From IMG/VR virus record IMGVR_UViG_3300022856_000003: a stretch of 64,000 nucleotides of DNA, one strand, 5' to 3'. Below the pieces are notes generated by a model, which had not been told where the DNA came from, made no database searches, and saw only the letters and a program-made list of their open reading frames with translations. The DNA comes from a virus. Positions 585 to 63,735 of the stretch are shown here, in pieces. Numbering within the stretch: position 1 is the stretch's first letter; every line of letters begins with the position of its first letter. A program made the translations under genes and the position numbers.

Positions 585-1712
585 ACATTCAGCGAACCAG
601 TGTTACACTGTTCGCACAACGAAATCGATTTCGCCACGAGGTGTGGCTGAGAGGTTCTGGTGCCAGACCCCATTCAAGTACTTGCTGATCCCACCGACCC
701 GCACCGGATGACGGTCTCCGAGATGCTCGACATCATCCGCCAGGAAACGGCCGACGACCCGTCCTTCGTCGAGGAAGTGATTGAAGCGTCAAAGCAGTAC
801 GCGATCTACTGCAAGTGCGGCGGAATGCCCAACGAGGGTCGGAACAACCAGCCGTTCGACACCGAGGCCGAAGCTCAGTCCGAACTCGAGAAGATGCGCG
901 CCGTGTTCAACCCCCTGGGCTCAGGCTCCATCGCGTGCTCTCAGTGGGCTGGTGCGAAGGTCTTTCCGTACACCGGGGAGAAGTGGCGACCCGAACTCGC
1001 CGCCGCGGAAGAGGCTGAGTCCCGTGCTTAGCGTCAAAGGCTTCCGTGCAGGATGGGGCGGGTCCGCAGGCGGATCACTCTCCGGGTTCCAGCGTGTCGC
1101 CCGCTCACGAGGAGAACCGGAGCCGACCACTGTGACCGGTAAGAAGGGACAGGGTCGAGCTGACCGCCTCCGTGACTACACCGTTCACGTCGTCCGTACC
1201 TCAGACCAGGAGCGGCGGGAGATGACCATCGGACCTGGGTATCACTCGAAGAAGGTGTGGCAGCAGAAGCAGGAAGACGCTCAGAAGACGCTCATGCGTC
1301 AACTCGGTTGGAAGGGATGATCTTGGATATCGAAGCCGTCATGGTCTCCAGACTCATCGCGCACCTCGAGTCCATTCAAGGGACATTGACGGACGACGAG
1401 CAGGAGGAGGAAAACCTCGAACTGCTGGAACATCTCCAACATGTAGAGAGGCAAGCCGGATGAGTTCACCGCAGTTCGACATGGGCCACATGATGGGTCT
1501 GAATACCGGTCGAGATGAGGCTAGAACCCTTCTGACCGCCATAGCTCAGCCGACGATAGATCGCCTCGTCAAGGAGGCGAAGGACGGTGCGAGCGTACTC
1601 AAGGTGAACCGACTCGAATGGATGGTCGTCGCCTACAGCATGAGCCGTTCTCTCGAGCCGAGAGAACCAGAGCCGGGTGCCAACTTCTACGGAATCCCGC
1701 TGGAGATATCTG

Positions 1713-2645
1713 ATGATTGAAGCATTGCCACTGCCCGAAGGCTGGTACCAGGACGACGAGAAGAACAACCTCCCCGTCTACAAGTCGCTGAGCGGGACGA
1801 TCTTGCTCGCCCGACCCGATGGGACCTACGGATTCCGCCCGAAGGGTGTTCCGATGCGTATCGAGTGCCCCGGCGAGACGGCGCTTGAGATCATGACCAG
1901 GATCAACGCGAGCCTGCCCTTCGCTGGGCTCAAGTTCTACGTCGCCTCGGGTCTGACAAATCGAGTCCTGGCCAGGCGCATGATCCTACGACTCCAAGGC
2001 CAGGGTGCCCAGGTGACCTACGACTGGACCCAACATGGATCTGTCGCTACTGACGGGCCTGAACGCCTACAGGAGGTCGCTGACGCTGAGGTCCGGGGAG
2101 TGATGGAGGCTGACTTCGTCGTCATCGTCATGCCAGGTGGTCGAGGCACGCACACCGAACTCGGTGTGGCTCTCGGGACCGGGTCGAAGGTCTTCATGTG
2201 GCTTCCCAGCGACGACGCCCAAGACCATGAGAAGTGGCTCAACGACTTGGGAGTAGTCAAGTCGACAAGCGGCTACCCCTGCGTCTTTCACTACCACCCG
2301 CTCGTCGAGATCATCGCTGGAGAGAACGTAGGCCCCCTCATGTCCGCGATCGGTGAGTGGGCCGCTGAGGCTGACCGCTCGTCCGTCTGGCCAGTGGAAC
2401 TGTCGAAGCATCCTCGAGTGACCTTCCTCATCGGACCAGACGGACAGCGACCGTTCCCCTGGTACTGCGTGAAGACTCCGTCCTATCCCGGGTGGTTCGT
2501 CCAGACCAACCTTCCCCTCACTGATGTGGTCGAGTACGCCAAGAAGTCTCTCGCCCGTGACGTTGGCGCAGGCGTGACCCCTGACCGCGTCGGTGAACTC
2601 ATCAGCGGGACACACATGCACGTCATCCCGGTGTTCTATGTCTGA
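1713..2645 (+). CDS. Protein with a central nucleoside 2-deoxyribosyltransferase-like (NDT/DNPH1/MilB fold) domain
   Basis: KFYVASGL...VTYDWTQHG...EVRGVMEADFVVIVMPGGRGTHTELGVALG matches the family pattern, including the catalytic E in ELG. ATG at 1713 overlaps the upstream gene end. Confidence 0.7.
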   Translation: MIEALPLPEGWYQDDEKNNLPVYKSLSGTILLARPDGTYGFRPKGVPMRIECPGETALEIMTRINASLPFAGLKFYVASGLTNRVLARRMILRLQGQGAQVTYDWTQHGSVATDGPERLQEVADAEVRGVMEADFVVIVMPGGRGTHTELGVALGTGSKVFMWLPSDDAQDHEKWLNDLGVVKSTSGYPCVFHYHPLVEIIAGENVGPLMSAIGEWAAEADRSSVWPVELSKHPRVTFLIGPDGQRPFPWYCVKTPSYPGWFVQTNLPLTDVVEYAKKSLARDVGAGVTPDRVGELISGTHMHVIPVFYV

Positions 2646-5600
2646 GCCAGAAGAACGCAACGTCCAGATCAATCGACTCGACAAGAAGCTCAAGGCGTAT
2701 GGGTTCGCCACCTGGATGCACTGGGTTCCTGAGACGTTCACTATTCGATTGGCGATCCGCCTAAAGGAAAGCAGTGTCAGGATCGACGAAGCCCGCGTCC
2801 TCCATCTCACCGACGAGCAGATCGATGGATGGGCGGCGAATCTGGCTGTCGCCTTGTCGCCGCTTCGACTTCCAGCCCCGACGCTGGAAGGAGAAACGAA
2901 GCCATGACCCCAACCGTCTGGACAAATGGCCGTGAAGGTCAGCCCGAAGAAGATGTCGAGTTCATCTACCTCGCATACAAGTCTGGTGATAGGAGGAAGA
3001 CCCTCATCGTCGCCCCGGTCCATGATTCCCACCCAGACACCAGCGTCCTTTTGCGTTCCCTGATGCACTACGCAAAGGGGAAGGGTAATAAGTTCAAGTG
3101 GTGGTGGGCTCCCTTAGATTCCCCAACCCACCTCCCTGGTGAAGATCCACCGGAAGAAACATGACCCCCATCGAAACCATCGCAGCAGCTCTGATCGTCG
3201 TAGGACTTGACCCTGATCTGGAGATCTATGGCATCCAGCATCAACCAGGAGAAGGTCCTCCCTTCCTTGCCTACTGTGTGAACACACACGAACGGCGAGG
3301 AGAGACGCCCCGGCTCGCTGCCGACCTCTTCGCGGCTGAGCCCATCGTGTCGACGACCCCGTGGAAGGCATGGACCGACGATGATGATGCTCGTCATGGG
3401 TTCACGAGGAAGTGGAAGGGCGTCCGTATCCGTGTCATCCAGGGAGCTGTCTACGACGCCACCGAACCAGGCGACGAGGATCAGTTCGACTGGAACGTCC
3501 GCTACTACCTCCACGCCGACAGTGAGCTGACCCTGGCTCACAAGTTGGACCTGCCACGCATGACCATCGATCAGGTGCAGATGGGTGCCTCGTCCTTCGG
3601 TAACAAGGTCATCGTCGGAATCCAGAACCAACAGAAGAAGGCTCTCCGTTCTCGAGCTGAGAGCCAGATGGCTACGATGCGTGCCGCTGGACAAATGCCA
3701 GAAGGTGAGCACTAGATGGAGAGATTCATCTATCGAGTGCGTCGGGCGATATACAGGTTCGCGTTCGACTACATCAAGCCAGATCCACCCATCCTTCAGG
3801 TGAAGCCAGAGGTGGGCGATACCCGCTTCGCTGAGGCCAAGTTCACTGGCGAGTACAGGGGATCGGTGAAGATGCCGAAGAGGACGAAGCTCGTAGACAC
3901 CTCTGCATTTGCCTTGGTGATGGCGAGCAACTGGATGGTCCTCCGAGCTGAGGACCAGGGCATGAGCGGTGTCCTCTTGTCCGAGGCGTTCGAGTACACG
4001 ATCAAGTACGAGATCGACTACAGACCCATCAACCCTATGTCGACCGGGCTCCAGCCGATGGACCCCGCAGGCATCCGCCAACTCATCGTCAGTATGCTGG
4101 AAGCCGCCCAGGCTGAGCCCGATGTCGAAGAGGAGGAGAGTGAGCCTGCCACTGTGATCCAGCTCTTTGGAATCCCCGGAGGAAAGACAGATTTCCCTGA
4201 CCCACTCGACCCGATCGACCCTGACCCGCTCGACACTTGGCAGGAAGACAGACCATGAGCCGCACACCATCGATTCCTACGCTGACAACGATCGAGTGGG
4301 GCGAGTCCCCGCTCTCATTCAAGATGACCATCCAGAAGATGCCATTCGGGAAGAATCCGTGGCATTGGAAGGTGTGGTCCACCGCTGACGGTGAGGACAA
4401 GCTCTTGATCAAGCGGAAGGCCGCGACCGAAGACAAGGCTCTCGCTGAGGCTGAGGACTACGTCGAGAACGACTTGAGTGTCCGCATTCAGTTGGCGGCG
4501 AAGATGTCGGAGTTGAAGGCCACGGAGAAGATCGAGCAGATGCGATCCGTTGAGGCTGACCTCGCCGCCGCGAACTCACCCGTCTGATGATGAACGTCCG
4601 GTTCTGCATGGGCGACCAGATCGGCCCGCCGCCTCCTGGCGGCTACAAGCTGATGCTCAATTCATCGAAGAACTGGGTGCAGATCGACGTGTACGAGTGG
4701 TGGATGCTCAAAGGTCCTGTTCATCGAGCCAAGAGGGCCATTGAAGGTGCTGAGACGCTCGAGGAAGTTCGGATAGGGCTTGAGATGTCAGGTGCAGAGA
4801 AGTGGGAAGGGCCGATGCCATGAATGACGTGGAGAGCAGACGAAATCGATTGCGCGAGATTCTCGAAGCTCGTGGAGACCTCTCCTGTTTGGCTGTGGAC
4901 ACAGTTGACTCGATCATGGCCGACCTAGATGAGTTTCTAATCAGGGACGTGATTGTCCAGATGCACATCCCCACGTCGCAGCTAGGCCCCAGGATCGTCT
5001 GGTGGTTGCTCGTCATCGAGACTCAACTCGGAGGCAAGCCCATCGTCCGCAACCGCGTGGTGACTGGTGATCCGATCGCGGCCTATATCGAGTACTGCGA
5101 GACTCACAGGGGAGCACATTCACTTCGGAACACGGTGCAGCTCACCGAAGACCAGGCCGCGACCTGGAATGAGAAGTTCCCGCCGTCCGATTGATTGACC
5201 CAACGCTCGACCACTGTTACACTGTGGTCACCTGCTGATCCCCTTCAAGGTGAAGGACCTCTGATGCCACTACAGCGAGATACCGTTTCCAGACGCGACC
5301 AAATCGAAATGGCCGAAAAGGTTCGTCGATTCATCGAGACCGAGCTGGGCGTAGGCGATCCAGCGGTGGAAGCCAACGTGCTCACTATCGCTCTGACGAC
5401 ATGCTCTGACGATCTGCTCGAAGTTGAGGCGACATGCGGTCGCGGGTCTGACGACCATCGGCTTGCCTCTCAGATCAGTCAGAAGGTCAGTGCGCTCCCT
5501 CTCAGGGATGCGACCTGATGATCACGAAGCTCAAGACTCATTCGCTCGCACTCATCCTCGCTCTGCCATTCGGTGCAGCGGCGGTTCACGCTGTCGCTCA

Positions 5601-8880: not shown

Positions 8881-9372
8881 GCGAAACATTCCTCTTGTGC
8901 AAGAAATGGCGTGGCGCAATCAACGTCGCATCCATGCGTAGCTTCGGTAGCCGCGCCGAGCTTGAAACCCACCTCCGTTCAGACGGTCAGGCAGGGGGCT
9001 GGACCGAAAGATGGTTCCTCGTCTACAGGACATTCAGCGACAAGCCGCCAGAACGCCTGCTTGCGAAGGAGAAGAGAGAGATTGGGTTCGAGGTCTGACT
9101 CTGCACCATTGAGGCGAAACCCGCCCACACACACGTCCCTGATGCCCCCTCTGCGGCTCGGGACAGTTCTACGCACACTTACGACCCCTCGACCTTGAAG
9201 CTCTCTACGGGCCTCTGACGGGCTCCTGTGTCTATAGATGAACCGACAAGAGACCCTGGTGTTACCCTCAACGAAATCGATTTCGTCGGATCGACTCGGA
9301 TTGAATCCCTGAACAACTCAGATTAGAATAAGTATTAACAACGACGAACCACGAACCACATGGAGTTCACAC

Positions 9373-10283: not shown

Positions 10284-10815
10284 GTGTTCTCACTTCGAGG
10301 GGGAACACCCCAAAAGGTACCCGCAGCCGCAAGGCGAGACTGACGAAATCGATTTCACTTCGGTGAGAAAGACTAGAAGGAAGGTGCCAGGGAGGGAGCC
10401 CAGAGCGCCCCTTGAAGTAGTTGACCGACCCTCAAAGTCGCAGCCACCAGGAAGCCTTCGCGGGAATCCCAGGTGCTCGGAAGGGGAAGGGACAACAGCC
10501 CGAAGGCGAAAGCCGGAAGGTGCCGACCCTCCACTGGGAGCGCCGCAAGGCGATGTGGAACAGGCAGGACCAGCAAAGCTCTCGAGTTGAGCCATTCCGA
10601 CAACACCCTCGTCACCCGCTTCGGCAGGTCACGGGGGTGAAGTCGTTGTGCTTAACATCACCGACTGCTAGTATGTGCTTGCCAGCCAACAGCGGACAAG
10701 GCTTTGGCCCGTGAGTGCGCGTCCTGGGCGTGGGAGGGGAGACCCGCTTTACCACCGATGGATGCCTGCAAACCGGGGTGGGTAGCGAGTGGCTGACCAT
10801 GGCTGGCCTTGACCC
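10284..10815 (+). ncRNA. Candidate large structured non-coding RNA (~530 nt)
   Basis: Own promoter (10258-10285) and no credible ORF. Tetraloop hairpins: GCC-GCAA-GGC 10326, TCAC-TTCG-GTGA 10355, GGC-GAAA-GCC 10505, CGCC-GCAA-GGCG 10541, a long cUUCGg hairpin at 10604-10639, GGG-GAGA-CCC 10736. Confidence 0.65.
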
Positions 10816-12264: not shown

Positions 12265-15078
12265 ATGAGCAAGAAGAATCGATTTGGCCCGAAGGGCGAC
12301 TGGAACCGCAAGTTCCACCCTGGGAAGGTCAAGAAGGCTGATCTCGACGACGACCTCGGCATAATCTTCGACATGGCGGCTGAGATCCATGCACAGGACA
12401 AGTCGCTGTTCGGTGAACTGTTCGATCAGATCTCCTCGCAACCCTCCCTTGTGAAGAAGTCGGCCTCTGTGACATTCGTTCCTGCTGCACAGAAGTCGCC
12501 GCAAGAACTGTTGCTGTCAGGTGAGATCAATGACTTCAAGAACTCCATCGCCGCCGCTTTCAGTATTCCGAAGGAGTTCATCTTCGGAGCGGACGAAGAT
12601 CCACCAGTCGTCCTGTGTAAAGGATGCGACCCGACACTGCTACAGGCCGATGTGGAGTGGTGCGAGATCTGCTACGTGGCAGGGATCAACCCCTGCGGTG
12701 AGATCCCAATGGATGGCCCACCCACGGACGAAATCGATTTCGCGACTCTGACCCCAGAGGTCTTCGCAAAGATGACCTCGTCTCAGCGCGGATCCATGGT
12801 CGGGAAGATCATGAAAGCGGTGGGCAAGTACTCACTCAATGGGCTCGATGTTCCGAAGGAACTGCTTGATGCTGTACAGGCTATGGCTCTAGCCGCGACG
12901 ACCCATCTCGACGCCAGCCCTGAGAATGACGAGCTACAGAACAAGATCAAGATCCCCAAATACGACATCAAGTTCGTCAAGGACAAGCCAGGGGCAGGAC
13001 TCATTCCTTGCGGACCGGTGACGCCGACACCCATGCCCTACCCGAAGTCTGGGCTCTGGGGGAATCTGAGCGCTCACGACCTCATCAGTGTCCAGCCGAT
13101 GACGAACCCAGCCGGAGCTAAGTTCCACTTCGACTACAAGTACGCCGAGGACGCCGAGAGCGAGGGCGTGGTCGTCGAGGACGAGGGGCTCCTGCTCGCT
13201 TCTCTCGGGTATAGCGACGGAGACATCAAGAAGATCCTCGCCGACAAGGCTGAGGCGAAGAAGAAGGAGTGGCAAGACTCTCTCCCTGGCCTGTCCGACA
13301 TCAAGCTGACGAAGACAGAGGTCACGGTCCACCCTGACAAGAAGCTCAAAGCCAAATGGGGTGTCGAACCCGTTGAGGACTTCAACAGTCCCGACAGCAT
13401 TCAGTCTGAGGCTGACCTGATAGGTGAATGGCTAGAGGACACAGGCGTGACGCCGACAGTGCTACCCAACCCGACAGATTTCGATGAGGACACTCTCGCC
13501 GCGTTCGCTGAGGCCAAGCTCAACAAACAGAAGGTCGCCCTGCTGGTGAAGGACTGGAGAAAGGTCCACCCTGGTCAGTCATTGCCACCGTTCTGTAAGA
13601 AGCATTCCGACTACGGCGCGATGATGTTCGGTGAGATCCTTGTCCACTGCGACAATGGGAACGGAACCCTGACCCTAGTCACAGGTGTGGTTGTCCCACA
13701 CTCGAGCGAAGGTGTGCAGATCATCGTGGAGAAGTCTCTTGCCTCCTCTGGAGGTGTGGGATTGAGCGACATGGGAGAAGCACTAGCCGACGTGGTCAAT
13801 AGCTCCCTGGATCTGCCACCACTGAAAGCAATCGACTACTTCCTTGCTATAGGCGTCTCAGGCTCGGACGCCCCGACCTACCTCCCACAGGGCTGCTACA
13901 TCGGAGCTGGCACGAAGAACATCGTATGGGGAGTGCCAGGCTCTCAACACGCTGTGACTGTGGCTGCCATCCACGAGAACCACTTCACCCTAGTGACAGG
14001 CGTGAACGTCCCGATCAAGCCGCCAATAGGCCCGAAGCCGATCTTCATGGATGCAGACGGCCAGAAGCCGATCTTCGCGCCCTACATCCCAGTCGAGTCG
14101 ACCCCCACGCTCGAGCTGAAAACAGCCAACGCCAAGTACGCGAAAAAGACTCTCAACCCGGCGCACTACGGTGTGGTCCCTCTCTCGAAGGGAAAGACGC
14201 AGACCGCTGTCGCAGCGAAGATGACCATCAAGGGCGTAAGCCAATCGATGATCTTCTTCGACGCCCAGACCGGGACCGAGTACTACATCGACCCCGTAAC
14301 TGGAGATCTTCACGAGGTGACTCGAGTCGTGACCAACGAAGACACCCTGACCGTGACAGTCATACCCAACAGTAAGAGCACGTTCTTTCCGGTGTCTCCA
14401 CTAGATGTCAAGAACGGAACACTGCCCTTCTCTATCAAGATGGCGATGAAAGCCAAGGCTGTCCTAGAGGCCAAGATCGCGCAGGAGACTGAGGAGATGG
14501 CTGACTTCAAGGAGCTGATGGGTGCTCCCCTCAAGGACAAGACCTCGTCAACGGACCAGTACAGCCCGATTCCCAAGCCCATCGTCTACCGAAAGAAGCT
14601 CCTCGGCGTGACCGTGGAACACATCCAATCGGAGCTGCTACCAGATGGTGAGAGCTTCCAGTACTACAAGGACGTAGTGACCGGAGACCTCCACAAGATC
14701 GTGGAAGCATCGAGCGGATGGGCCACATCCAAGGACGATGCGAAGACGTGGGTAATCGTCGAGGAGAACCCGGAAGCCACAGCTCCACCGACACACCCAC
14801 TGCTGCATAAGCTGAACACGAAGAAGAAAGTCAACGGTGATGTAGCAAGCCTCGAGGCTGAGGAGCACGTAGACGAGAATGGCGACCTCACTGTGAAGTG
14901 GGCTCCCAAAGCCAAGATGGTCACCCACACCGCTTCCTTCAAGAACAATGAGAAGCCTGAGAACCCAGACGACTTCATGTACGCAATGGAACAAGCTCAA
15001 GCTGACCGCATTCAGGCGAAGCTCGACGCAACACCACCATGGGAACAAGCACTCGACCTACTACACGACATGGACTAG
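12265..15078 (+). CDS. Large (937 aa) mosaic protein containing colinear gp23-type major capsid fragments and a portal-like peptide
   Basis: Probable start MSKKNRF at 12265, just after the previous stop. Motifs: AHDLISVQPMTNPAG..F.FDYKY; KKLKAKWGVEPVEDFNSPDSIQSEADL; FAPYIPVESTP; KYAKKTLNPAHYG. Confidence 0.65.
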   Translation: MSKKNRFGPKGDWNRKFHPGKVKKADLDDDLGIIFDMAAEIHAQDKSLFGELFDQISSQPSLVKKSASVTFVPAAQKSPQELLLSGEINDFKNSIAAAFSIPKEFIFGADEDPPVVLCKGCDPTLLQADVEWCEICYVAGINPCGEIPMDGPPTDEIDFATLTPEVFAKMTSSQRGSMVGKIMKAVGKYSLNGLDVPKELLDAVQAMALAATTHLDASPENDELQNKIKIPKYDIKFVKDKPGAGLIPCGPVTPTPMPYPKSGLWGNLSAHDLISVQPMTNPAGAKFHFDYKYAEDAESEGVVVEDEGLLLASLGYSDGDIKKILADKAEAKKKEWQDSLPGLSDIKLTKTEVTVHPDKKLKAKWGVEPVEDFNSPDSIQSEADLIGEWLEDTGVTPTVLPNPTDFDEDTLAAFAEAKLNKQKVALLVKDWRKVHPGQSLPPFCKKHSDYGAMMFGEILVHCDNGNGTLTLVTGVVVPHSSEGVQIIVEKSLASSGGVGLSDMGEALADVVNSSLDLPPLKAIDYFLAIGVSGSDAPTYLPQGCYIGAGTKNIVWGVPGSQHAVTVAAIHENHFTLVTGVNVPIKPPIGPKPIFMDADGQKPIFAPYIPVESTPTLELKTANAKYAKKTLNPAHYGVVPLSKGKTQTAVAAKMTIKGVSQSMIFFDAQTGTEYYIDPVTGDLHEVTRVVTNEDTLTVTVIPNSKSTFFPVSPLDVKNGTLPFSIKMAMKAKAVLEAKIAQETEEMADFKELMGAPLKDKTSSTDQYSPIPKPIVYRKKLLGVTVEHIQSELLPDGESFQYYKDVVTGDLHKIVEASSGWATSKDDAKTWVIVEENPEATAPPTHPLLHKLNTKKKVNGDVASLEAEEHVDENGDLTVKWAPKAKMVTHTASFKNNEKPENPDDFMYAMEQAQADRIQAKLDATPPWEQALDLLHDMD

Positions 15079-16766: not shown

Positions 16767-17342
16767 ATGAGATTTCTACGACTAGGTCTACTGATTGAGC
16801 GCATCGGCAAGCTGATGCAGAACCTCTCTGCGGACGAGAAGCTCGCCAACGCTCTGACCGCACAATCCGCCGACCACTGCACCGTGGGTGGTGAAGTCAC
16901 GACTCGAGGTTTCATCGTTGAGATGGGGATGCGCGGATGGACTCCCGAGTACGTCGGCGAGATGGTCCACTTCCGTCGCAACGGTTGGACCCCTGATGGT
17001 CACCCACTCGATAAGGTTCCGTACCTCGACGACAAGGGTCGGCCCGTGGTCCCACATGAGTGCTGCGGCTGCATCTGCCAGGTGTGTGTCGAGGGTCACA
17101 ACTCGTATGAAGACCTCGGGCACGACGCCCGATGTCTCGAGCACGCCGACCAGCGACGCCAGACGATCACGGCCGAAGTGTCACCGCCATACTGGATTGA
17201 AGCTCCGTGTTGCGGATGCATCTGTCAGGTCTGCCAGGCTGTCCATAGCGGAAACACGAGGATCCACTCGCCCAGGTGTGTGGACCACCGAGCGAAATCG
17301 ATTTCGCATGTCGACACACCCGCAACCTCCCTGGAGAAGTAG
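16767..17342 (+). CDS. Hypothetical protein with a duplicated CCGCICQVC...H...RC..H metal-binding unit
   Basis: HECCGCICQVCVEGH...HDARCLEH and APCCGCICQVCQAVH...HSPRCVDH. Confidence 0.6.
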   Translation: MRFLRLGLLIERIGKLMQNLSADEKLANALTAQSADHCTVGGEVTTRGFIVEMGMRGWTPEYVGEMVHFRRNGWTPDGHPLDKVPYLDDKGRPVVPHECCGCICQVCVEGHNSYEDLGHDARCLEHADQRRQTITAEVSPPYWIEAPCCGCICQVCQAVHSGNTRIHSPRCVDHRAKSISHVDTPATSLEK

Positions 17343-18915
17343 ATGTCCCCTCTCGACCCGCCCAGCCTGTCTTCCGCCGAAGTCCGACTCATCAGCCGAG
17401 TCCGTCGGCTCAAGAGGCTGATGGAACTCGATGCACCCACCGTCATCCAGACCTCGGAGTCTGGGCTCGTCAGCATCGCGGTGGCCAACTGTGTCGAGGC
17501 CCCATCGCCGGGTGCGTTTCGGCTGTCGACCTACGACGAGTCTCGAGACAACCTGGGCCTCGCCCCTGCCGGTCCCGCGGTGAAGCGCGGTGAGACGACC
17601 ATCACGATGGACGACCGGATGTTCGACTCGATGGTCGCCTGGAACTACCCGCTCGCCAAGTACGAGATCGTTCCCGACAACCTGATGAACAACGGGGACA
17701 CCTGGACGATGGATGTGGTGGCCAACACGGGTGACGACATCGTCGAGTTCGACCGGTGGCAAGAAGGCGAGAAGGTGATGGGGATCGGCATCTACCAGAT
17801 CTGCGCCGACCTCATCCGCATGGGCAAGATGCCTGCGGGCAAAGTCATCATCAACGCGAGCTGGTAGTCCGATGTACGGATGTGTTGACCTCTGTTTTGG
17901 TGTGAAGCTCTACGGCATGGACACGATGCGAGAGTCCTTCGACGTATCGAAGTGGAAAGACGCGATGATCGACATCGCGAAGTACGAGTTCGACGGAGTC
18001 GACACTCTCGAGACCGCTGAGTTCGGAAACCCTGACGAGTGGGACGACGACGGCATCAAGATGTTCGTCGAAAACTGGCTCGGTGAGTCTAACTACGTCG
18101 AGAGTCCCTACACGGGCTCCGGTACGCCGCCGATGTACATCGGCATCCAGATCGGTAGCTGGCCCTACTTCCATTCAGGAGGAGAAGACGGGTTCATCGC
18201 CGCTGCGCGGAATGACCGACCCCTGACCGACGAGGAGTCAGGTAGGTGGATGTCCAAAGTGCCCGCAGAGGTACGCGACATCCTCACCAGGCACGGACAC
18301 ATCCCAGGGTTCGTCTGGGGAGCCAGTACAAGCTGATGCTCGAACGACTCAAAGCCTACGCCGCCGACACGAAGCCGCTCCTGGAGCAGGTCATCGCCTT
18401 CCGCCAACAGACCCTTGGAGGGTGGAACGTCACCAACGGCTCTGTGCGAGTCTTCTTCAAGAAGGGTGACGTGAGTGTTATCTACAGCGAGCATGGGGTC
18501 GGATGGAGGCTCGAGTCTGTGCGGATGGTCGACGACGGACATGTTCTATGGCGGATGAATGGAGACACGTTGAAGGTGACTTCGACGAGAAGTTCCAGGG
18601 TCGTTCCGCTCGGGGATGGGTTCGTTCGGTCCTGGCGTGACTGTGACGAAGTGTTCTACGAGTGACCCGATTGCTTGACATGCCTGCGATGTTCAACTAG
18701 AATGTGGTTGGAACGAAATCGATTGCGCCGAAGGTCGGCGAGGAAGAATCCAGAATGATCAATCTCCACAACCTGTTCATCGCCCGTGACGGAATCGTAG
18801 CCGCTCTGGCCGAAGGTCTGTCTCCCGTGCAGGCTCTCAAGAAGGTCCGCGCGACGAAGGCTGGAAAGACCATCAGCGTGACGACCCTGATCCGCATGGC
18901 TCGGCGGCTCCAGGC

Positions 18916-22855: not shown

Positions 22856-24208
22856 CAACGGTAACCACTTCGACTAGAGTAGAAATATGCCGCGTGAAAG
22901 CTCCAACGTCCGAATCGCCAACGCAATCAAGCTCCTGGACGACTTCGCCACCGAGGCGTCTTCCACTGATCAGGAGCCCGAGCAAGATGAGTGGTGGGAT
23001 CTCCTGTACGCCGTCCTCAAGGCGCTGAGAGGATGAGCTACCACGTCGAGGAACTCGAGAAGTTCAGCAAGGCCCGAAAGACCGATCAGGACGCTCGATT
23101 CCAGATGGGCCGTAAGTACCAGCTCCTCACGCCGCGAGTGCAGGAGGTCGTGGCGATCTGCCGTGGCATGACAGATCGTCCTCCGAGGGACACTCGGTTC
23201 AAGCTCTGGCGCGTCAAGAAGATGGGCTCCGTCATCGAGGTGCTTCACGAGAGATACTACGGAGAGGGGGTCTACGGTGTGTGCTCGCGTATCCAGTTCC
23301 CCGCCTCCTGGCTCGACATGCCAAGGGATGAGATCAAGGCTGAGATGACTCTCACGCAGCAGAAGATCACCGACTTCGATGACGGTCAGGAAGGCTACCC
23401 AGCCGTCCCAGGGCCTCCGCAACCAGATACCGACCCGGTCGAGGACTTCCTCGACGACCTGATGGAATAGACATGGTTGGACCAAAAGAGCGGTACTCGA
23501 AGCCCATCACGATCTGGTGAGCCGTGGTCGTAGGGTATGGCCCGAAAGGGACGTGCCCGACCGGCAGGTTGCCGGTATTCAGTGTCGAGACCGAAGAGGA
23601 AGCTGAGGCGTTGATCCAGCTCGCCTGTTCGACGAACTACGAAGGCGAGTACATCGCGAAGGAACTGGCGGAAGAGCAGACCATGGAGAACCTCCAGGCA
23701 TTCAGCGACCGACTTGCCGACATCCACGAGAGGTTCTTCGCTCCACGGTGCCCCGCGAAATCGATTTCACCGGATGAGTAGGACCTGCCAGAGGTGTGGC
23801 GACACAGATCCGCCGTCCATCAACACGGTCTGTCAGAACTGCGGGGCTCTCATCCGTGGAAACAGAGTCCGCAATTTTCGATACGTCGTGAGCCAGCAAG
23901 GGAGCCACTGGGTCGCCCGCGTGTTCTCCGGGTACAGAGGGGAAACCTTCGCCGCCCTGGGTGCGCTTACGATGGACAAGACTGACGTGGAGGATCTTCA
24001 CGAGATAGCCAACTACACGCCGTTCATTGAGGTCCAGTTCGCCATAGCTGCGGAGAGGCAACTTGTTAAGATCAGGTACGACAGGGCTGGCCCAAAGAAG
24101 TCCCCTGACTCTTCGATAGAGGCCGAACCTAGTCTCCTCGACATCATCCAGGACACGTAGGCGGCCCGTTGTGCTACTATGCGCTTGTTCAACCGATGTT
24201 GAGGTGAA

Positions 24209-25784: not shown

Positions 25785-26101
25785 AATCGATTTCGCAGGA
25801 CGCCGTCGCGTTGCTACGCGCGACCCGTTGTGATACTCTATCGATGTTCAAACGAATGCCCGTCAAGGTGACGGTGGAGGTGAACAGTGGCTTCTCGACG
25901 ATCTCAATGGAACAACGGAGCTAAGCGGTGCGTACAACGTCACCGTGGAGTTCAGACCCAATCAAACCTTGACGGTAAGAAGGCTCAAGAACGCCTTCAA
26001 GAGCGTCAAGTCCGTGCCGCTGCTCGTCGTGAAATCCGACGTGAGCGATGGTTTCAAGATCTCCTTGAGAGCTTCGAGCGTGAGAGCTTTGGACGACGCT
26101 G

Positions 26102-44363: not shown

Positions 44364-44365
44364 TC

Positions 44366-44593
44366 GTGACCTCAGAGTTTGAGGACATTCTCGCTGGCGC
44401 AGTCGGTGGTACACGAAATCGATTTCGCGATGTGAAGTCCCCACTCCCTGGTGGCGAAGTCCAGGAAATCGGGATGCTTTTCATCAACCGCGCGCTCGAC
44501 GCAAGGCTCTCGCGGATAGCCAATGATCGTGGTACAAATGTGTCCCAGGTCCTCACAGCAGCCCTCGACTTGCTCGAGTTGGAGCCGAAGTAA
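44366..44593 (+). CDS. Putative ribbon-helix-helix DNA-binding protein
   Basis: IGMLFINRALDARLSRIANDRGTNVSQVLTAALDLL. Confidence 0.55.
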   Translation: MTSEFEDILAGAVGGTRNRFRDVKSPLPGGEVQEIGMLFINRALDARLSRIANDRGTNVSQVLTAALDLLELEPK

Positions 44594-45054: not shown

Positions 45055-47317
45055 ATGAAGTCCTTCATCACAGAACTGTCTGAGCCCACCGTCTCGGACC
45101 TCGACGAGGGCGGCTTCGGCTCCTCGCTCAAGGACGCGAAGAAGGCGGTCGACTCTTTGAAGTCGTCGTCGCACAACATCGTCAAGATGGGCACGGTGGG
45201 ATTGCCGAAGACGAAGTTCGCTCTGAACGACGGGACCACTGCTTACGTCTTCGAGCTGGTCAGTATCCAGTAGGAGTAGATGTGAAGAATCTGATCAAAG
45301 AACTGTCCGAAGATCCCGAAGAGACCGACGATCTCGAGGAGGCATCCGGCTCCTACGAGGGTGAGGGGATCCAGTTTACCGACAAGGAGGCTCGTGCCTT
45401 CCGTCTCGGAGTGGACCTCGGAAGGTTGTCTGGCCAGAAGAAGCTCAGACGTGTTGATTTCGAGATCAACAGCGACAACTTCGCGTTCGTGAGTTTCAAG
45501 GCGAAGAAGAAGGTCGGTGCTCACATCCTGATGTACCTCCGTGGATGGTGGAAGGTCACCTACCACTTCGACACCGAGAGTTTCGAGTCGAAGTGAAGCG
45601 CCTCATCGCCCATCTCGCAGAGTCCGCATCGGAACCTGGGATCGTCTGGTTCGCAGCGAACGAGTGGCCGAAGACATCTTCGCTCGCCACTGGCTCAAAG
45701 GCCGCTGAGAGGTACCCGTTGGTTCCCTTCGCGACCGTCTTCAAGAGTGGTGATCATCCGGGTGCGAACTTCAAGAGGAAGGACCTCCCAGGGAAGTTCG
45801 TCGTGAAGAAGGGTCGAGACCACTTCCTGATCGACTCGGGCGACAAGGACTACGGCAAGCGAGTCGCGAAGTTGCCGAAGTTCAAACCTGTGGCGCGCTT
45901 CCAGTGAAATCGCTCATCGACGACCTCCGCGAGATGACCCTCGCCGGGAACGTCGCCACCGTGGCAGTCCCATTGGGAGCCGTCCTCCGACGCCCATGGC
46001 CTGACATGTGGAAGAAGCGAAAGAAGCGCAAGAAGACTGAGTCCCTCGACGAGTCAGCGTCCGTCTGGAAGCAGATGGTCGACATCGATTCCAAGCTCGA
46101 CAGCGAAGCGCAGAACTGGAATCACAACCTCGCCGCTGTCTTCAAGCTCTATGAGAAGTTCGCATCGAGGCCAGCGAAGCTCGCAATAATTCTGGCCAAG
46201 TTCGACGCCCCGCACTGGCTGTCGACTGCGAAGGCGAAGCACGGCTTGGAACAGGTTCGCCTGCACGACAAGGCGCTGGCCAAAAGCATCATCCGTGAGA
46301 TCCGTCGCTGGGATGGCATGAAGGACGCGACATGAAGGCACTGATCAAAGATCTGGACGAGGTTGCTGTCCCACCGAAAGCCCGGAGGGTGGAGGTTACG
46401 ATGGCAATCGAGGGGAAGACTCTGATCATCGAGACCCCTGCTGGAACGATGGAGGTCCTCAACTTCAAGAAGTCGGCGATCGGTGAGGAACCAGCGCGGT
46501 TCAATGGTCACGTACCGAAGACCTGGATGAAGTCGTGAAGGCACTGATCAAGGCACTCAAGGGTCGTGACGCAGAATCCATCCGAGTGGTGGTACGCGCT
46601 GAACTCGAGGTTTCAGGGTTCGTTACCGTCGAGGACGGGAAGATCAAGGCGTTCGTCGGTCCTGACAAGAAAGAGATCGAGTCACAGATGCGTGATGGTC
46701 TCGTGAAGGTCCAGTCCCTCATCGGAGCATCTAGGCGCGATGTTCTCGCTGGGGCAAAGAAATCGGGACTGGTATAGTCCGGATGTAGCCCGCGACGGTG
46801 CGGGCCAGGAGGTTCCATGAAGTACCGCTGTTGCAACTGTTCCCACATCGACACCAATGGCTCGAAGTGCTCGAAGTGCGGGTCCAACTCGCTCGAGACC
46901 CTCTCGCCCGCCAACCAGCCCACTGCTGAGAGCGCACCCCAGGGTGGTCCACAGCTTCTCTGCGAAGTGCCCGACGATCGAAAGCCCGTAGGCAACCAGA
47001 TCAACGGGTGAAATCGATTTCGCGGAGAAGACATGAAGGCATTGATCCAGTCGATCGACGAAAGCAAGTCGGTACCGCTCAAGGTCCTACGCGCACTCTC
47101 GTCGGGTGTGTTCGGTAACGCGAAGTCGTCGATCCTGTATTGGGCCGATGGTGGCGTCTACAAGATCACGTCTAGTGGCGAGGTCTCGTTCGATAAGAAG
47201 AAGATCGGGAAAGTGGACAGCCGTGACGATCTCCTGCTCGCTCTGTCTTCCGGTCGAGGAGGCTCGTACAAGGTCGGGTCGAAGACCGTGAAGTTCGGAG
47301 CTTCGTCGAAGAAATGA
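45055..47317 (+). CDS. Cluster of small putative internal head proteins with 10-aa N-terminal capsid-targeting leaders
   Basis: 45055 MKSFITELSE; 45282 MKNLIKELSE; 45593 MKRLIAHLAE; 45904 MKSLIDDLRE; 46332 MKALIKDLDE; 46535 MKALIKALKG; 47033 MKALIQSIDE. Confidence 0.75.
46817..47011 (+). CDS. Small zinc-ribbon protein
   Basis: MKYRCCNCSH...KCSKCGS. AGGAGG RBS. Confidence 0.6.
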   Translation: MKYRCCNCSHIDTNGSKCSKCGSNSLETLSPANQPTAESAPQGGPQLLCEVPDDRKPVGNQING

Positions 47318-50974: not shown

Positions 50975-51519
50975 CGACTCGGCGACACGCTTTGAAGCTG
51001 AGTGCCGCTTTCGCGGCAGCAGCCATGCTCGGACCGAAATCGATTTCGTCTCAGGTGGTGACACCGGACGTTCACGACGAAAAGTGGATCCGCGACACGC
51101 TCACGGACATAGCCCGTTCGTTTAACGGCAGATCAGGTGAACGAGCAGCAGGAATCCTAATAGGAGCCATGATGCGTCTTCGCCGCTTGTGGCCGTGGCA
51201 CGACTGGACTTGTATCTACGATGAGGCTCGTGACGTGGCTCTCGTGGACACTCCAGACGGTGTGATCGAGGTCAAGACCTTCATCCAGACATTCGACCGG
51301 CACTTCTGCTTTCACGGTCTGGATGCTGCTGCTGAGTTGTGTTCCTGCATAGCGATGAAGTCCTGGTACCAGTGGCGCATGGAGCTTCTCGGCGAGACCC
51401 TCGAGCAATGTGCTGATGAGTGGGCAAAGCAGGAGCTTCGCGTCCATCCACACTGGGGTCAGGGTGAGCGCAACTGGGCCGCTATCCAGAGAGAACTCGA
51501 CTTCAAGGGCTGGTCATGA
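50971..51519 (+). CDS. Hypothetical protein with a twin-arginine-like leader
   Basis: MTTRRHALKLSAAFAAAAMLGP. Confidence 0.45.
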   Translation: MTTRRHALKLSAAFAAAAMLGPKSISSQVVTPDVHDEKWIRDTLTDIARSFNGRSGERAAGILIGAMMRLRRLWPWHDWTCIYDEARDVALVDTPDGVIEVKTFIQTFDRHFCFHGLDAAAELCSCIAMKSWYQWRMELLGETLEQCADEWAKQELRVHPHWGQGERNWAAIQRELDFKGWS

Positions 51520-51950: not shown

Positions 51951-52810
51951 AGCCGCTCTACCCCTCGGGCGAGATCACAACCTGCCCTGGTGAAAGCCGG
52001 GGTGACTGGAGTGATCATGAACCACAAGAGAAAAAGACCAAAGAACCGACGTGGCGGATGCCTTCTGTGTAAGCCGCACAAAGCCAATGGTTGCAAGCAC
52101 GGGAACCCGACTAGACAAGAAGCAAAAGCTCGCGCTAGCGAGGCTCAGCAGATTCGCGAAATCGATTTCGCATCCCTTGATTGAGATAGCGACCGCTGAT
52201 ACACTCTCGATGTTCAAACACTCCCCAAACCGCGCAAGGTGCGCGAGGAGAATCGATGAAGACCCTTACGGATACCGAACGTCTCGCCCTTCACACCCTC
52301 GGCAAGGGAAACAAGGGACTCAAAGAGAGTCGCGACGGTGTCGTCCCAGGCCAGTACACGGTGGACTTCACGGTTCACGTCACTGGTGATTTGACCATTG
52401 CGCCGGATACGACGGTTGCCCCGACTGTGACCCTACCGGCGAAGGAGATGGTCGCCAGGCTCCTCAAGATGATGGGTCACACTCGTTCCAGCGGGATCAA
52501 GCTGTTGGGTGCCATGGCAGAAGAGATCGACGGTCTGACCGCTGGTGCGAAAAAGACGCTGATGGCAGAGTCGGGCTTCAACGAGGCGACCAACATCATC
52601 AAGGCCCAGACCGTCGCGGTCATGGGGAAGACTCCTCGTCGTGGTTCCGTCAAGGGAGCCTTGAGCTACGAAGTCACTGATGCAGCGCCGACGGTCATCG
52701 TCGAGCAGCTCGAGGCAGAAGTTCGCAATATCCCCGCTCAAGACGATGTCTCGGGTGCGGTGGATGACATCCTCAACATGGACGATTAGTCCAGCCCTCA
52801 CCGGAGTCTC

Positions 52811-54139: not shown

Positions 54140-55408
54140 GGTGTTGAGGAGGCAGAGCGCATGACAGACAGCCACGACAAAGTCGACCTCGACATCGAAG
54201 ACATGCTCCAACCGGAGATTGCGATCTCCATCGAGGAGAAGATCGCGCAATGTCGAGGGATCCCTGCGGTTCGCAAGATCGTCCAGGCCCACATCAAGAA
54301 GACGGTCATCGGACCACTCCAGGCAGCGATGAAGATGAATGGCATCATCGTCGAGCAACCTGAGCAGCGTCGTCTCTTCGCCGAGACAGTGTTCGCGTCC
54401 GTCTCGTTCACGCTCACTACGGGAGCTGAGGCGACGATCAGGTTGCTGGCGATGCTCAGCACTCGAGGAGGCCACCCGGCCACTGCCGAGGGATGCGAGC
54501 ACCAGTACTGCCCGCATCATCGCGGTCTACATCCGGTACTTCACATGAAGGCCATCCAGGACAAGAAGCCCATTGGCGTAATGTCCGACATTCTGGCCGA
54601 GAACGGCATGGACCCCAGCATGATGCTCGCCTTCAATGGCCCCAAGGCGGAAGCATGAGCAGCGTCTCAGCAGCGTCCCTTCTCGACGACGAACCCTCGG
54701 TGCAGGTGAAGCGGGTCGTCAAGATCGCTCCTTGCGGTGGCTGTGGGAACTTCCTCCTCCGCGACAAGATGTGGGCGATGAACACGAAGATCTACAGCCC
54801 GGATGACAAGGCGGAAACCGTCATCCGCGTTCGGGTCTGCGAGACTTGCGCCACTGGCGAGATTGATGATCTCCGAGAGATCGAGTGGGACAACGCATCC
54901 ATGCGAGTCCTCAAGGACGACGAGTCCCTCGAAGAGATCAACAAGGCTCTGGACAACGTGATCGAGGGATGAAATCGATTTCGCAGGAGGTCTGCGTGGA
55001 CAAGGACGAGAGCTACTTGAAAGACTTCAATCCGCTCACTGCGGAAGGCCCACCATGCCCACGATGTGGAGCTGAGTGCGAGTTGAAGCCAAGGGCTCGT
55101 GGGATTCGAGCGTCGTTTGTCTGGAAGTGCCCAAAGAAACCCACCGAACATGGTGTGATGCGGCTCTCTCAAGGCAAGGACATCCTTGAACGCCTCAGAC
55201 ATCAGCATGCCGACAGAGTCGCGGCTGAGAACGAAGTGATGATTCAGGAGTTCGACCAGGACGACATGGGCGCTATCGGCGAGATTCTCGCTGAACTCTG
55301 AATATTCGATCCCCGTTTACTTGACCTGACGAACGCCAACCGATACAATCCTAGTGCGTCGCGACATTGAGTCCGACGCCGCCCAAGGTGGGCATTCAAG
55401 GTGAATAC

Positions 55409-57180: not shown

Positions 57181-57783
57181 ATGGAGGTCAAGGTGACCCA
57201 GGGTGACGACAAGATTGCAATCTTCGGGAAGATCGTCGAATCTTCTGTTGACGGCCCCGGAACCCGCGCGGTGATTCACTTCGCAGGCTGTTCCATCGGG
57301 TGCCCCGGATGTTTCAACCCTCTGACCCATGATGCGACCGCGCCAGGCGTCTGGTACGGCTCCGCGAAATCGATTGCGCGGAGGATGCTCGCGGTATCCG
57401 ATTCCGTGACCATCTCCGGTGGCGAGCCCACCGACCAGCTCGAGTCCCTGTTCGACCTCTGCGTGGAGCTGAGGGCAGAAGGCTGCAACGACATCGTCCT
57501 GTTCACGGGCAAGAAGGTGTCTGTCCATGAGAGGAAGCCTCTCTGGAACAAGCTCATCAGAGATTGTCTTGTGGATGTCGTAGTCGACGGACCCTTCAAG
57601 CAAGGGAACCTCGCCATCATCGGGCTCCGTGGCTCCGACAATCAGGAAGTCATCCCGATCACCGAGCGGTGGACCGTGGCCGACTTCAACGAGCGGGAAG
57701 TCGAAATCACGCTCGACTTCTCCAGCGGTGGCCTGCTAATCACGGGCTTCCCTGACCAGGAACTTCTCGACCTGCTGGCGTGA
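57181..57783 (+). CDS. NrdG-like radical SAM / 4Fe-4S protein
   Basis: VDGPGTRAVIHFAGCSIGCPGCFN (CxxxCxxC), TISGGEP, DVVVDGPF, LRGSDNQ. Confidence 0.85.
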   Translation: MEVKVTQGDDKIAIFGKIVESSVDGPGTRAVIHFAGCSIGCPGCFNPLTHDATAPGVWYGSAKSIARRMLAVSDSVTISGGEPTDQLESLFDLCVELRAEGCNDIVLFTGKKVSVHERKPLWNKLIRDCLVDVVVDGPFKQGNLAIIGLRGSDNQEVIPITERWTVADFNEREVEITLDFSSGGLLITGFPDQELLDLLA

Positions 57784-58120: not shown

Positions 58121-58597
58121 ATGAGTGCCTACGCCGAATACAACAGTGTCCAATTCAAAGACCTCCCTTGCCTGATTGAGGCGCTCCAGAAGTGCCGCAA
58201 CCGGAAGGGGATCCCCTGGACCCTGTACAATCTCGTCATCAGCGAGAACAACGACATCGATCTCTACGGCTACGAGGGGAAGAACCGATCGACCGCCAGC
58301 GGCCAGAACCGTTCGCCCAAGTGCTCGATCGCCATCGCGGGAGCGGGACGCCCCGGGTGTTTGAACGCAGTCGGCTCGTCCTCCAACGACCTCGGCTTCA
58401 CCCGAGACGCCGACGGGAACCTCGCCCCGGTCATCAGCAGCTACGACTCGACGGCCTACGACGAGTGCTGGATGAACGAGTTGAAGGCGACCTACCTCGA
58501 AGTCCTCGTCAACAAGAACGCGAAGAAGAACGGCTACAAGGTCAAGAAGACCGAAGTCGACGGCAAGGTCAAGCTGACCATGACCCGCTGGCGCTAG
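58121..58597 (+). CDS. DUF1257 / Ycf35-like protein
   Basis: MSAY....VQFKDLPCLIEALQK...LYGYEG...SNDLGF...ISSYD...LKATY...AKKNGYKV. Confidence 0.75.
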   Translation: MSAYAEYNSVQFKDLPCLIEALQKCRNRKGIPWTLYNLVISENNDIDLYGYEGKNRSTASGQNRSPKCSIAIAGAGRPGCLNAVGSSSNDLGFTRDADGNLAPVISSYDSTAYDECWMNELKATYLEVLVNKNAKKNGYKVKKTEVDGKVKLTMTRWR

Positions 58598-60919: not shown

Positions 60920-62336
60920 TGGCGGAAGTCACCCGCTACTACGACGTGATGGATCTGCCCGACGAGATCTACAACGCTCTCAACGTCATGGGCCACTATC
61001 TCAGTGGGGAAGGCGTGTCGAGCGGTCTCATCAAGGTTGTGGATAGCGATGTTCCGGCCTTCGTCGAGAACGGCATCTGGTTCATCGACATGCGGTGGGC
61101 CATCCAGGCGTCCAAAGGAGCGACAGCCATGGTCCTGACCATCTGTCTCGGAGCGATGTCCAGGGATCAGTTCGAGGTTGAGGCACACAAGGTCTTCGAC
61201 CGCACGCTCAAAGCGCAGCTCTCTCTAGCCAATGATCTCGTGAAGTTGCAGGAAGTCACGGACAACCGGGTCAAGCGCATCAAAGACCAGGCCATGCGCG
61301 ACCTCAAGAGCTACCTGCTCGACAATGTCGTAGTGACACAGGACGACGTGGACACGGCCCTAGACGACATCTTGAGGACGTTCTAATGACCGACCTCGAC
61401 GAAGCAATCGAAGTGGTGGCGAACCTAGCCAATCGGACCCACACACCGACCATCGCTGACGGCATACGCATCGGTGCTCATGCTGTCCGAAGGGCGCTGG
61501 AGGAGGTGTTCGAGAAGAAAGTGGTGCTAAATATCGGAGGTGATAGCCCTGCTGATGAGATGTTCGGGACGAGACGCGAAGGGCTCGAGAACCTTGCAGC
61601 CACCCTTGCCGACAAGGACCGTGATTCTCCCATCCCACACAGCGAAATCGATTTCGCCAGTCTCAAGTTCGAGGACAAAACTCACCTCGACGATGACGAG
61701 AGTAGGACGCTCACTCAGATGGCCTTCTTCATCTGGGGAGACCATTGGCACGGCTCGAATACCTCATGGCTCCAGATCGCTGATCTGCCGCGCAAGGGGT
61801 TCGCCATCTACGCCACCGAGGCTGGTCGACCTCTGGTCGTCATCGACCCGCGATGGCTGACTCCTGGTTCGTTCACTGGCGATGGTCCTGGCGCACGGCA
61901 GTTCACTGCCATCCTCCTGGCTCTACCCAGTGCGAACGCCAAGCACATCCTCAATCTGTCTCTCGAGCGTTTGTTCGGCTTTGCATCCTCGGTGAACCGC
62001 AAGGAGAGTGAGTACAAGGGCGAACTCGACAAGGAGTACGCCAGGAAGGAACTCGATCTCGCCTCCGGGTTCGCTGACAAGGTAGAGCAGGCCCATGCCA
62101 CAGCACTCGAACGCACATTGAAGGCTGAGAGGAACTCGATCAACCGTTGCTTGGTCGCTGAATCGGAATGCAACGAGAAGGTCCTTCTGGCCGAAGCGGA
62201 GGTCCGAGATATGAAGATCTGGTGCGAGACGGTTCGTGAGCGTGCCTCGGCAGATGCGCGGCAAATCCTCGAAGATCAAGTCGTCCTCGAACGCGACATC
62301 GACTCTGTACTCGAGTCCATCATGGAGACCCTGTGA
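60916..62336 (+). CDS. Two hypothetical proteins (60916..61386, 61386..62336) sharing a coiled-coil + VVxxxD[VI]D tail with the GHKL ATPase
   Basis: LLESVVTESDVDDIL / LLDNVVVTQDDVDTALDDIL / ILEDQVVLERDIDSVLESI. Confidence 0.6.
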
Positions 62337-62959
62337 TCCAAATCGATCAGATACTCCCGCCCGTAGCCAGAACCATCGAGTGGGCTTTCAAGATCAGGAC
62401 GGACAAAGAGGTCCAGATCGCGGGTGTCACTCGGTTGGCGATGAGGGATCTGGTTCGAGCTGTCGCCCCTGGACTCGGGAAGCTCCTGCTCTCGCACATG
62501 AATGGCGAATGGCTCCACCTCAACCCGCCACCATGGACCCCGTTCGAGGAGGTGGTTATGCCGCCTCTCGACCCGGCCGTCCTGGCGAAGTACCCGGAGT
62601 ACGCCGACCTCCGAAGAGAGGAAACCGTTTACCTCAACTCCAGGTATCAGGTGAACGCCCGCGAGGTGGGCGGCGGGATGACTCACCTGTCCATCAAGAG
62701 GGTCGGCAAGGAACCACACATCGACTGGCGAGACATGCAGCGCATCAAGACGGAATTGACCTCTGCAACCCGAGAAGGGATGGAGCTGTATCCCGCCGAG
62801 AGTCGCGTCGTGGACACCGCGAACCAGTACCACATCTGGGTTCTACCCGAGGGAGCCCCATTGGGCTTCGGTCTGGGTCAGGAGAGGATCATCATGAACA
62901 ATGCCGACCTCGAAGCGACACCAGCAGGAGGGGGCATTCAGCGCCCCTTTGAAACCTGA
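62333..62959 (+). CDS. Conserved phage protein (HLSIKR...DWRDMQRIKxEL...ELYPAESRVVDTANQYHIW)
   Basis: Distinctive motif string recalled from uncharacterised phage proteins. Confidence 0.6.
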   Translation: MIQIDQILPPVARTIEWAFKIRTDKEVQIAGVTRLAMRDLVRAVAPGLGKLLLSHMNGEWLHLNPPPWTPFEEVVMPPLDPAVLAKYPEYADLRREETVYLNSRYQVNAREVGGGMTHLSIKRVGKEPHIDWRDMQRIKTELTSATREGMELYPAESRVVDTANQYHIWVLPEGAPLGFGLGQERIIMNNADLEATPAGGGIQRPFET

Positions 62960-63735
62960 GATGGAAAGAAGCCTCACAGTGAATCTGTCCTTCTCCCCAC
63001 AGGAAATCCTGGATGCACTCCGACAGGCATACCCGGATGAGAACATTCCCGATCACGCCTCCATCAAGGTTGGTCGAGGTAGTCGCCCGTCCGATAAGAA
63101 GAAGACGATTGTCGGCGAGACTGAATCAAAGCGAGCCATCTATGCGTCATTGGACTGCAAGGTCCATTGGGACAAGCGATGAGGAAGCTAGGCCGCTGGT
63201 ATCACAGCAACGGTGGAGTTGACCCCGATCAGTGCGGCGTGACAGTCAGTTGGCGTCGTCAACCAGGCCATTCAGGTCTCGGGTTTGGGAACCGAAAAGG
63301 CTGGCCTCAGCGATCAGGCCGCAACGCCTTCGCCCCCGTGCTGGCCACTCCGCTCCACGGCTCCATTGGAATCATGAGCCCAGACTGGGTGGACGCTGAC
63401 GGTGGACATCCGATGAGTCCCCCGAGCGACTACTACGACTTCGGACATCCCGAGTTGAAGTGGCAGTCCGAGATGCGCTCCGCTCCCGATGGCGCGGTCG
63501 AAGCATTCTGCAACGAAGCTGACCGTCTGGCTGTTGAAGCTGGATGGACACTCACCGAGGAGGAGTAGAGATGAGCACGAGAACGACCATCACCGCAGAG
63601 GTCCAAGCGGTCCTCGAAGCTGGAACCATCACTGACGGCGTTCGCCAAAGGTTGACCAACGGGACTGGTCTCGCGAAATCGATTGCGCTAGAGTGAGGCC
63701 ACAGGGACGGTCCCTGTCCATAAGCAAGAGGCGAT

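Follow-up and report, generated by a model that had tools for sequence, protein, structure and literature searches.

A dispersed 14-bp palindrome in a tailed phage is most likely a docking site for a phage protein with a ParB-type DNA-binding domain

Here, we analysed a stretch of 64,000 nucleotides from the IMG/VR virus record IMGVR_UViG_3300022856_000003 (hereafter, the window), which belongs to the genome of a tailed phage (at least 144 kb) and in which an initial annotation, made from the sequence alone, had noticed at least 20 copies of a 14-bp palindrome, CGAAATCGATTTCG, 9 of them perfect. Our count bears this out: the window holds exactly 20 copies with at most 1 mismatch and none with 2 mismatches, namely, 9 perfect sites, 3 starting with TGA, 3 ending in TTTCA and 5 ending in TTGCG, against a mean of 0.02 and a maximum of 1 in dinucleotide shuffles. 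The gaps between sites span 1072-6725 bp, with a mean of 3319 bp, and the impression that the copies do not cluster holds under a test for under-dispersion, in which the spacing proved more even than random (coefficient of variation 0.47 versus 0.96 for random placement, p=0.0002). The palindrome is, then, an evenly dispersed feature of this DNA. The sites are palindromic, and orientation bias is confined to the minor TTGC variants, all of which point the same way within the window, with one opposite copy downstream of it.

The sites occupy diverse positions with respect to genes. Four are intergenic: the perfect site at 620..633 begins 19 bp downstream of where an extended -10-like element starts, an operator-like position judging from the sequence context; the perfect site at 9272..9285 lies 88 bp 5′ of open reading frame (ORF) 9373; a TTTCA variant is found at 10344..10357; and the site at 18714..18727, from inspection of its context by eye, covers the expected transcription start directly downstream of a TTGACA-17-TAGAAT promoter-like element. 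Twelve of the 20 are wholly contained in genes called by a codon model. Sites within ORFs are read as the peptide EIDF at 12729..12742 (perfect, in an ORF for a 998-aa protein), 32065..32078 (in an ORF ending at 32206), 38790..38803 (perfect, ORF 38482-39000) and 61643..61656 (perfect, ORF 61386-62336), as RNRLR at 4841..4854 (TTGCG variant, ORF 4820-5194) and 29263..29276 (ORF 29119-29682), as RNRFR at 44414..44427 (perfect, ORF 44366-44593), and as KSIS at 17293..17306 (perfect, close to the end of ORF 16767-17342) and 51035..51048 (perfect, ORF 50971-51519), the last of these, which is not among the 12, lying in a database-annotated gene. Another site, at 57365..57378, falls in a radical-SAM (Fer4_12) gene. 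The three TGA variants (3/20; 25782, 47009 and 54970) each begin on a stop codon: the first three bases of 25782..25795 are the TGA stop of ORF 24708-25784 and are followed by a promoter-like element, 47009..47022 covers the TGA stop of ORF 46817-47011, and 54970..54983 covers an ATGA stop/start overlap, with a site also present in the homologous gene of a relative, L131. Short genes with weak support harbour the TTTCA variant at 23756..23769, the perfect site at 52157..52170, directly upstream of a -35/-10-like element, and the site at 63674..63687, which falls in an ORF of 41 codons upstream of ThyX. These reading frames agree with those listed initially, with refinements for the stop-codon, short-gene and intergenic sites.

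The claim that the palindrome is a signal at the level of DNA rather than of protein can be made quantitative. Synonymous-codon resampling of the called genes (1000 runs) produces 0.23 coding sites on average and at most 2, compared to the real 12, and all 12 peptide positions compatible with an encoded site carry one, whereas codon usage predicts 0.24. Therefore, the signal is selected at the DNA level.

Identical copies of window proteins occur in ENA, JGI and Logan assemblies, the JGI samples probably being from Ace Lake, Antarctica. A downstream walk added 36 kb, bringing the known part of the genome to 99.8 kb. The added segment encodes a DnaC-like loader, DnaB, a primase, RecA and resolvases, as well as a DNA-modification cluster, a ParB_N protein, the terminase and a T4-type portal, and it contains 10 further sites, for a total of 30 with the same regularity. 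About 5 of the 30 overlap sigma70-like promoter elements (620, 18714, 25782, 52157 and one downstream of the window), and extended -10 elements occur at 3 of the 30 versus 0.19 expected, the pattern having been chosen after looking.

No cultured phage matches the window at the DNA level, and a scan of viral contigs for the exact motif returned mostly single chance matches. Two syntenic phages with about 45% protein identity carry the same site family, with the consensus YGMAAYCGRTTKCR. We collected a wider group of relatives through the ParB_N gene and called palindromes de novo in each genome, which yielded genome-specific palindromes of 14, sometimes 13, bp with a common layout. In all, the site family spans about 30 related phages of 60-200 kb and 40-63% GC, cultured ones included. 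In the radical-SAM gene, whose conservation the initial annotation had pointed out, two distant relatives have the site at the same codons, although the peptide shifts from KSIA to QSIA or KLIA. The arms of the sites are CGCAAG in G003/G005, TGCAAT in G047/G056, TGAAAT in G043, TCCAAT in G052/G057, CGAATT in G059, GGATCG in G040, and CGACCA or CGTCCA in G027/G033/G023, with CGACCA in a 13-bp form in G026. Across the relatives, the centre is CG, TA, YR, TG or degenerate, and the arms persist. Even spacing recurs in G046, G047 and G063.

Several observations on this group stand apart. One lineage (G026, G028, G024 and G025) has a 13-bp site with a centre one base shorter and the same arms as its 14-bp relatives, which implies a change in dimer geometry. 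A second palindrome, GAAAACTCTWAGAGTTTTC, occurs in G003 (18 copies) and G005 (about 10), partly in clusters (L149-L168). The large phages G002, G007, G010, G011 and G014 (L135, L139, L143, L144, L147, L171-L173) carry dispersed odd palindromes of the TACG(C/G)CGTA type; G002, G007 and G010, which combine 13-bp odd palindromes with a full-length KorB-like ParB, were set aside as a different system.

The reader of the palindromes is likely encoded outside the window. The initial annotation had pictured a dimeric binding protein and named two ribbon-helix-helix (RHH) proteins (8043, 44366) and a winged helix-turn-helix protein (18916) of the window as candidates; a dimeric phage protein is indeed suggested by the comparisons and models described below, whereas these three have no tblastn homologue in the other site-bearing genomes examined. 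The candidate that we favour is P0148, a protein of 311 aa (L174:17942-18877), about 24 kb past the end of the window, whose gene is the last of a replication-recombination module (primase-RecA-resolvase-RuvC). Its family is present in every site-bearing genome with enough sequence covered, including L131. P0148 has no Pfam match and belongs to PHROG 17202, of unknown function, a large family of 3027 clusters at 50% identity (E up to 1e-10). In the predicted structure, which is confident (pLDDT 86.7), residues 19-145 have the DNA-binding domains (DBDs) of Spo0J, Caulobacter ParB and KorB as top structural matches (Foldseek probability 0.99, E 0.08; VIA Z 8.2 for Spo0J, with a root-mean-square deviation of 3.2 over 107 residues, 8.2 for ParB and 7.6 for KorB). 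Weak matches liken residues of about 157-205 to an RHH-type dimer region and residues 268-311 to a SAP-like fold. Of the features of ParABS systems, the model thus contains the ParB-type helix-turn-helix (HTH) DBD, with moderate scores, and lacks the CTPase in the same polypeptide: the DBD begins at residue about 19, no CTPase domain was found in the model, and none of the 146 best family representatives listed is fused to ParB_N. Nor was ParA detected, with PF13614 above the cut-off in 0 of 14 relatives, most of them complete or nearly so; for the phage of the window itself, of which 100 of at least 144 kb is covered, this negative is incomplete. With respect to a possible autoregulatory site, the nearest one lies 271 bp upstream of the DBD gene in the phage of the window, and G047 and G063 have a site shortly upstream; no site directly precedes the gene in the large CC-arm clade or in the G003 group. 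As a separate observation on the family, an intein-like insertion is present within the DBD gene in G046, and a second, shorter paralogue is encoded by G047.

The same pairing of protein and site extends to cultured phages. RcZahn (Rhodobacter), DLP5 (Stenotrophomonas), Vibrio phage 1 and L338C (Rhizobium) encode the DBD protein at the same position of the module, all with Arg78 and Tyr82 in the recognition helix, and contain 9, 31, 3 (degenerate) and 52 exact matches, respectively, to TGCAA-N4-TTGCA-type sites, compared to 0 in the control. The DBD protein is gp67 (ATS92308.1) in DLP5 and gp74 (AHC30491.1) in L338C. A site precedes the DBD gene by 88 bp in RcZahn, 78 bp in DLP5 and 98 bp in L338C. 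DLP5 is maintained as a phagemid (PMC5834331).

Covariation between the protein and the sites points in the same direction. In every genome with G at position 2 of the site, the recognition helix has Arg or Lys as residue 78; this residue is Thr or Ser in G052/G057, where position 2 is C, and Ser in G060, where that base is G or A. Column 78 is the only one of 235 in which Arg/Lys matches position-2 G exactly (24 genomes). No column of the ParB_N or small-terminase proteins tracks this base as column 78 does. CC arms mostly go with Arg at residue 82, and AA arms with Tyr, Asn, Ala or His there. The prediction of CC arms for Arg82 genomes was written down before testing, although the site pattern was tightened after a first version that was too loose; CC-arm sites were then found in G028, G039, G024, G054, G035 and G036. 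Residues 78 and 82 may form part of a residue-base code; given the exceptions at residue 82 and the carriers of the protein that lack sites, both detailed below, this code is partial.

Taken together, these comparisons and the structural model suggest that the palindrome is most likely the docking site of a phage protein that has the DNA-reading domain of ParB without its CTP switch; P0148 is probably that protein. We further consider it fairly probable that the palindromes are the sites of a phage-encoded dimer serving as a KorB-like anchor across the genome, repressing a subset of promoters and organising the chromosome inside the cell. Under this scenario, each monomer would read one half-site through its recognition helix, with Arg78 on the position-2 G, and the dimer would occupy 30-50 fixed anchors along the phage chromosome. 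It would act as a repressor at roughly one in six sites, where sigma70-like promoters overlap, and upstream of its own gene. The remaining sites, within genes or at their ends, are evenly spaced, as would suit a structural role: at this majority, the protein may organise the replicating or plasmid-like chromosome by anchoring, bridging or coating the DNA, much as KorB does on plasmid RK2 but without CTP-driven sliding.

Among the known systems, the closest likeness is with KorB and its operators (OB) of the IncP plasmid RK2, which share the ParB-type DBD (1r71, Z 7.6), palindromic sites dispersed across the replicon both at promoters and away from them, and self-regulation (PMC11790492). KorB, however, has an N-terminal CTPase, slides as a clamp and partners with the ParA homologue IncC and with KorA, whereas the phage protein has no CTPase domain and no ParA was found in the 14 relatives. 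The phage sites, at 14 bp, are also 2-4 times more numerous than OB sites. ParT of the ParA-ParT-parS system of the Streptomyces plasmid SCP2, compared by its description, is likewise a CTPase-less ParB-like binder of a palindromic site; after loading, it diffuses on DNA independently of CTP. ParT works with a cognate ParA at a clustered 18-bp parS, in contrast to the 14-bp, genome-wide and mostly intragenic sites of a phage without a detected ParA (PMC12260392). Because the binder lacks a CTPase and no ParA was found, P0148 does not appear to be a member of the KorB or ParT systems. Chromosomal ParB-parS and Noc-NBS share the DBD fold (6s6h, 1vz0), and Noc sites are dispersed, but both proteins are CTPases and their sites are 16 bp long; specificity is switched between ParB and Noc by a small number of residues within and following the recognition helix (PMC7383237), as may be the case for residue 78. 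The parS analogy drawn in the initial annotation stands in the form of a parS- or KorB-operator-like logic, with a predicted ParB/Spo0J/KorB-type DBD in the candidate reader.

A number of observations weigh against this interpretation. The structural scores of P0148 are moderate for helical domains, and G042, G045, G048 and G051 encode the DBD protein without a detectable dispersed palindrome. A base other than G at position 2 arose just twice, in the sisters G052/G057 and in G060, and the CC arms may represent a single clade. The blind test gave weak or no sites in five of ten genomes, these being fragments, and G030 (His82) has CC arms, contrary to the prediction; further exceptions to the residue-82 rule are G025, with Val and CC arms, and G064, with Tyr and non-AA arms, and columns other than 82 separate the arm classes equally well. 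Even spacing is absent in G003, G005, G026, G033 and G043, and the organising role is argued from analogy only.

A different function for the same reader is conceivable in light of the ParB_N protein. This protein of 261 aa (L175:14453-15238) consists of a ParB_N and a dimerisation domain, keeps the GxxRxxA motif and the ParB N-domain fold, and its family has no conserved recognition helix. It is not the reader itself, because the complete genomes G055, G058 and G065 encode ParB_N without the DBD protein and contain 0, 0 and 1 YGMAA-type sites, whereas L338C has 52 sites without the full-length family of ParB_N with its C-terminal domain (CTD); ParB_N was rejected as a candidate on these grounds. 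The two proteins do, however, hold complementary halves of ParB, and the DBD protein might load the separate ParB_N protein at the sites, so that a two-gene sliding clamp would carry the enzymes encoded nearby, for DNA hypermodification or packaging, across the genome. The even spacing would suit clamp loading, and the ParB_N gene adjoins genes for WbqC, a methyltransferase, PIG-L and the terminase. In 31 of 55 loci, mostly of one clade plus G052, the end of the DBD gene is less than 500 bp away from the ParB_N gene, which keeps the idea alive at low odds. Furthermore, phage ParBs with the same layout, a nucleotide-binding domain (NBD) and a CTD without a DBD, activate thymine dioxygenases (PMC13229309); neither a DNA site nor a DBD partner is described there, we identified no dioxygenase here, and the CTP-binding residues are dispensable in that system. 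The gene content also speaks against a clamp: L338C, with its 52 sites and DBD protein, has only N-domain ParB matches, Vibrio phage 1 has no ParB match at all, the three complete genomes have ParB_N alone, and in small phages the two genes lie tens of kb apart. Profile comparison revealed no similarity between the C-terminal domains of the two proteins, and the predicted complex scored 0.00, which is evidence neither way. All considered, we regard such a split ParB as unlikely; if it were real, it would provide the DNA-targeting step that phage ParBs without a DBD lack or, alternatively, a means of maintaining a phagemid without ParA.

Another protein could read the sites. One candidate is a MerR-like HTH protein encoded in the replication module; another is a host protein, either a regulator of the LacI/LexA type or a nucleoid protein, that the phage would titrate or exploit. 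LacI-family operators and the Gram-positive LexA box have a similar 5-4-5 layout; the MerR-like gene is conserved in 22 genomes, and some carriers of the DBD protein have no sites. Yet the arms are near-identical in phages of Rhodobacter, Stenotrophomonas, Rhizobium and Vibrio and shift with the phage lineage, and this near-identity across four host genera argues against a host reader. Moreover, the MerR-like protein was not found in G060, which is 96% complete and has 34 sites, and no LacI domain (PF00356) scored above the cut-off in five phage genomes, two of them site-bearing. A reader other than the DBD protein seems improbable.

We assign a similarly low probability to a role in packaging or DNA entry, whereby the DBD protein or a virion protein would condense or pull the genome at intervals or shield it from host nucleases. 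Such a role would fit the even spacing across structural and early genes alike, and the SAP-like tail might add non-specific DNA binding, but the DBD gene belongs to the replication rather than the virion module, palindromic sites carry no direction, and site density varies more than tenfold among the relatives. Finally, the initial suggestion of a self-mark for a methylase or nuclease, for which the 6-bp palindrome ATCGAT at the centre and the DNA-modification genes of the phage might speak, is very improbable, given that ATCGAT is not enriched outside the sites (28 versus 36 expected), nor are GATC and TCGA, that the centre changes in relatives while the arms stay, and that 14-bp words are far rarer than methylase targets.

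Mycobacteriophage stoperators and the 17-bp dyad repeat of Cluster O resemble the sites described here in being present in many copies phage-wide, often in genes. Stoperators are asymmetric, oriented with transcription and read by the immunity repressor; for the Cluster O repeat, no reader is known. The phage palindromes lack the asymmetry of stoperators. We found no description of the motifs, or of palindromes in the cultured phages, in the open full-text literature.

Dispersed phage palindromes usually come without an identified reader, whereas in the present case a site family can be linked to a large protein family that has no name, and the candidate residue-base code together with cultured models (DLP5, L338C and RcZahn) makes the idea testable at the bench. 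If the KorB-like anchor is real, it would represent a CTP-free, ParA-free use of the ParB DBD, strong enough to alter both the codons and the residues of conserved enzymes, and the group would constitute a natural library for HTH specificity evolving together with dozens of sites at once.

Other features of the phage deserve mention. Nucleoside deoxyribosyltransferase-like, QueC-like and dNMP kinase genes (window 1677-2645, 5983-6603 and 28032-28643), as well as the WbqC, methyltransferase and PIG-L cluster beside the terminase (L175:11149-14453), are signs of DNA hypermodification. A cluster at window 55409-58597 consisting of an AAA ATPase, the radical-SAM gene, a small ORF and DUF1257 is conserved in L130 and L131 and resembles the bacterial Ycf46/Ycf35 cluster. 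The 998-aa protein (12082-15078) contains only a short, weak Gp23 major-capsid-like stretch, and neither viral contigs nor cultured phages yielded a full-length relative; it is probably not the capsid protein itself. An acidic C-terminal tag, x-A/L-L-D-x-I/L, is appended to unrelated proteins, with about 10 clear cases among 15 regular-expression matches (ORF starts 12082, 19814, 20983, 22553, 23033, 23972, 24708, 48600, 54655 and 60919). Hairpins in which the stem varies but the loop, RAGGT, is fixed are scattered over window positions 638-59295 (e.g., 5247, 18731, 25865, 28693, 48214, 52236 and 59295), usually directly 5′ of a ribosome-binding site, with 22 on the + strand versus 1 on the - strand over the 99.8 kb; four of them directly adjoin a palindrome site, L131 has 9 hairpins with an AGG loop, and these elements are possibly an RNA-binding or processing signal.

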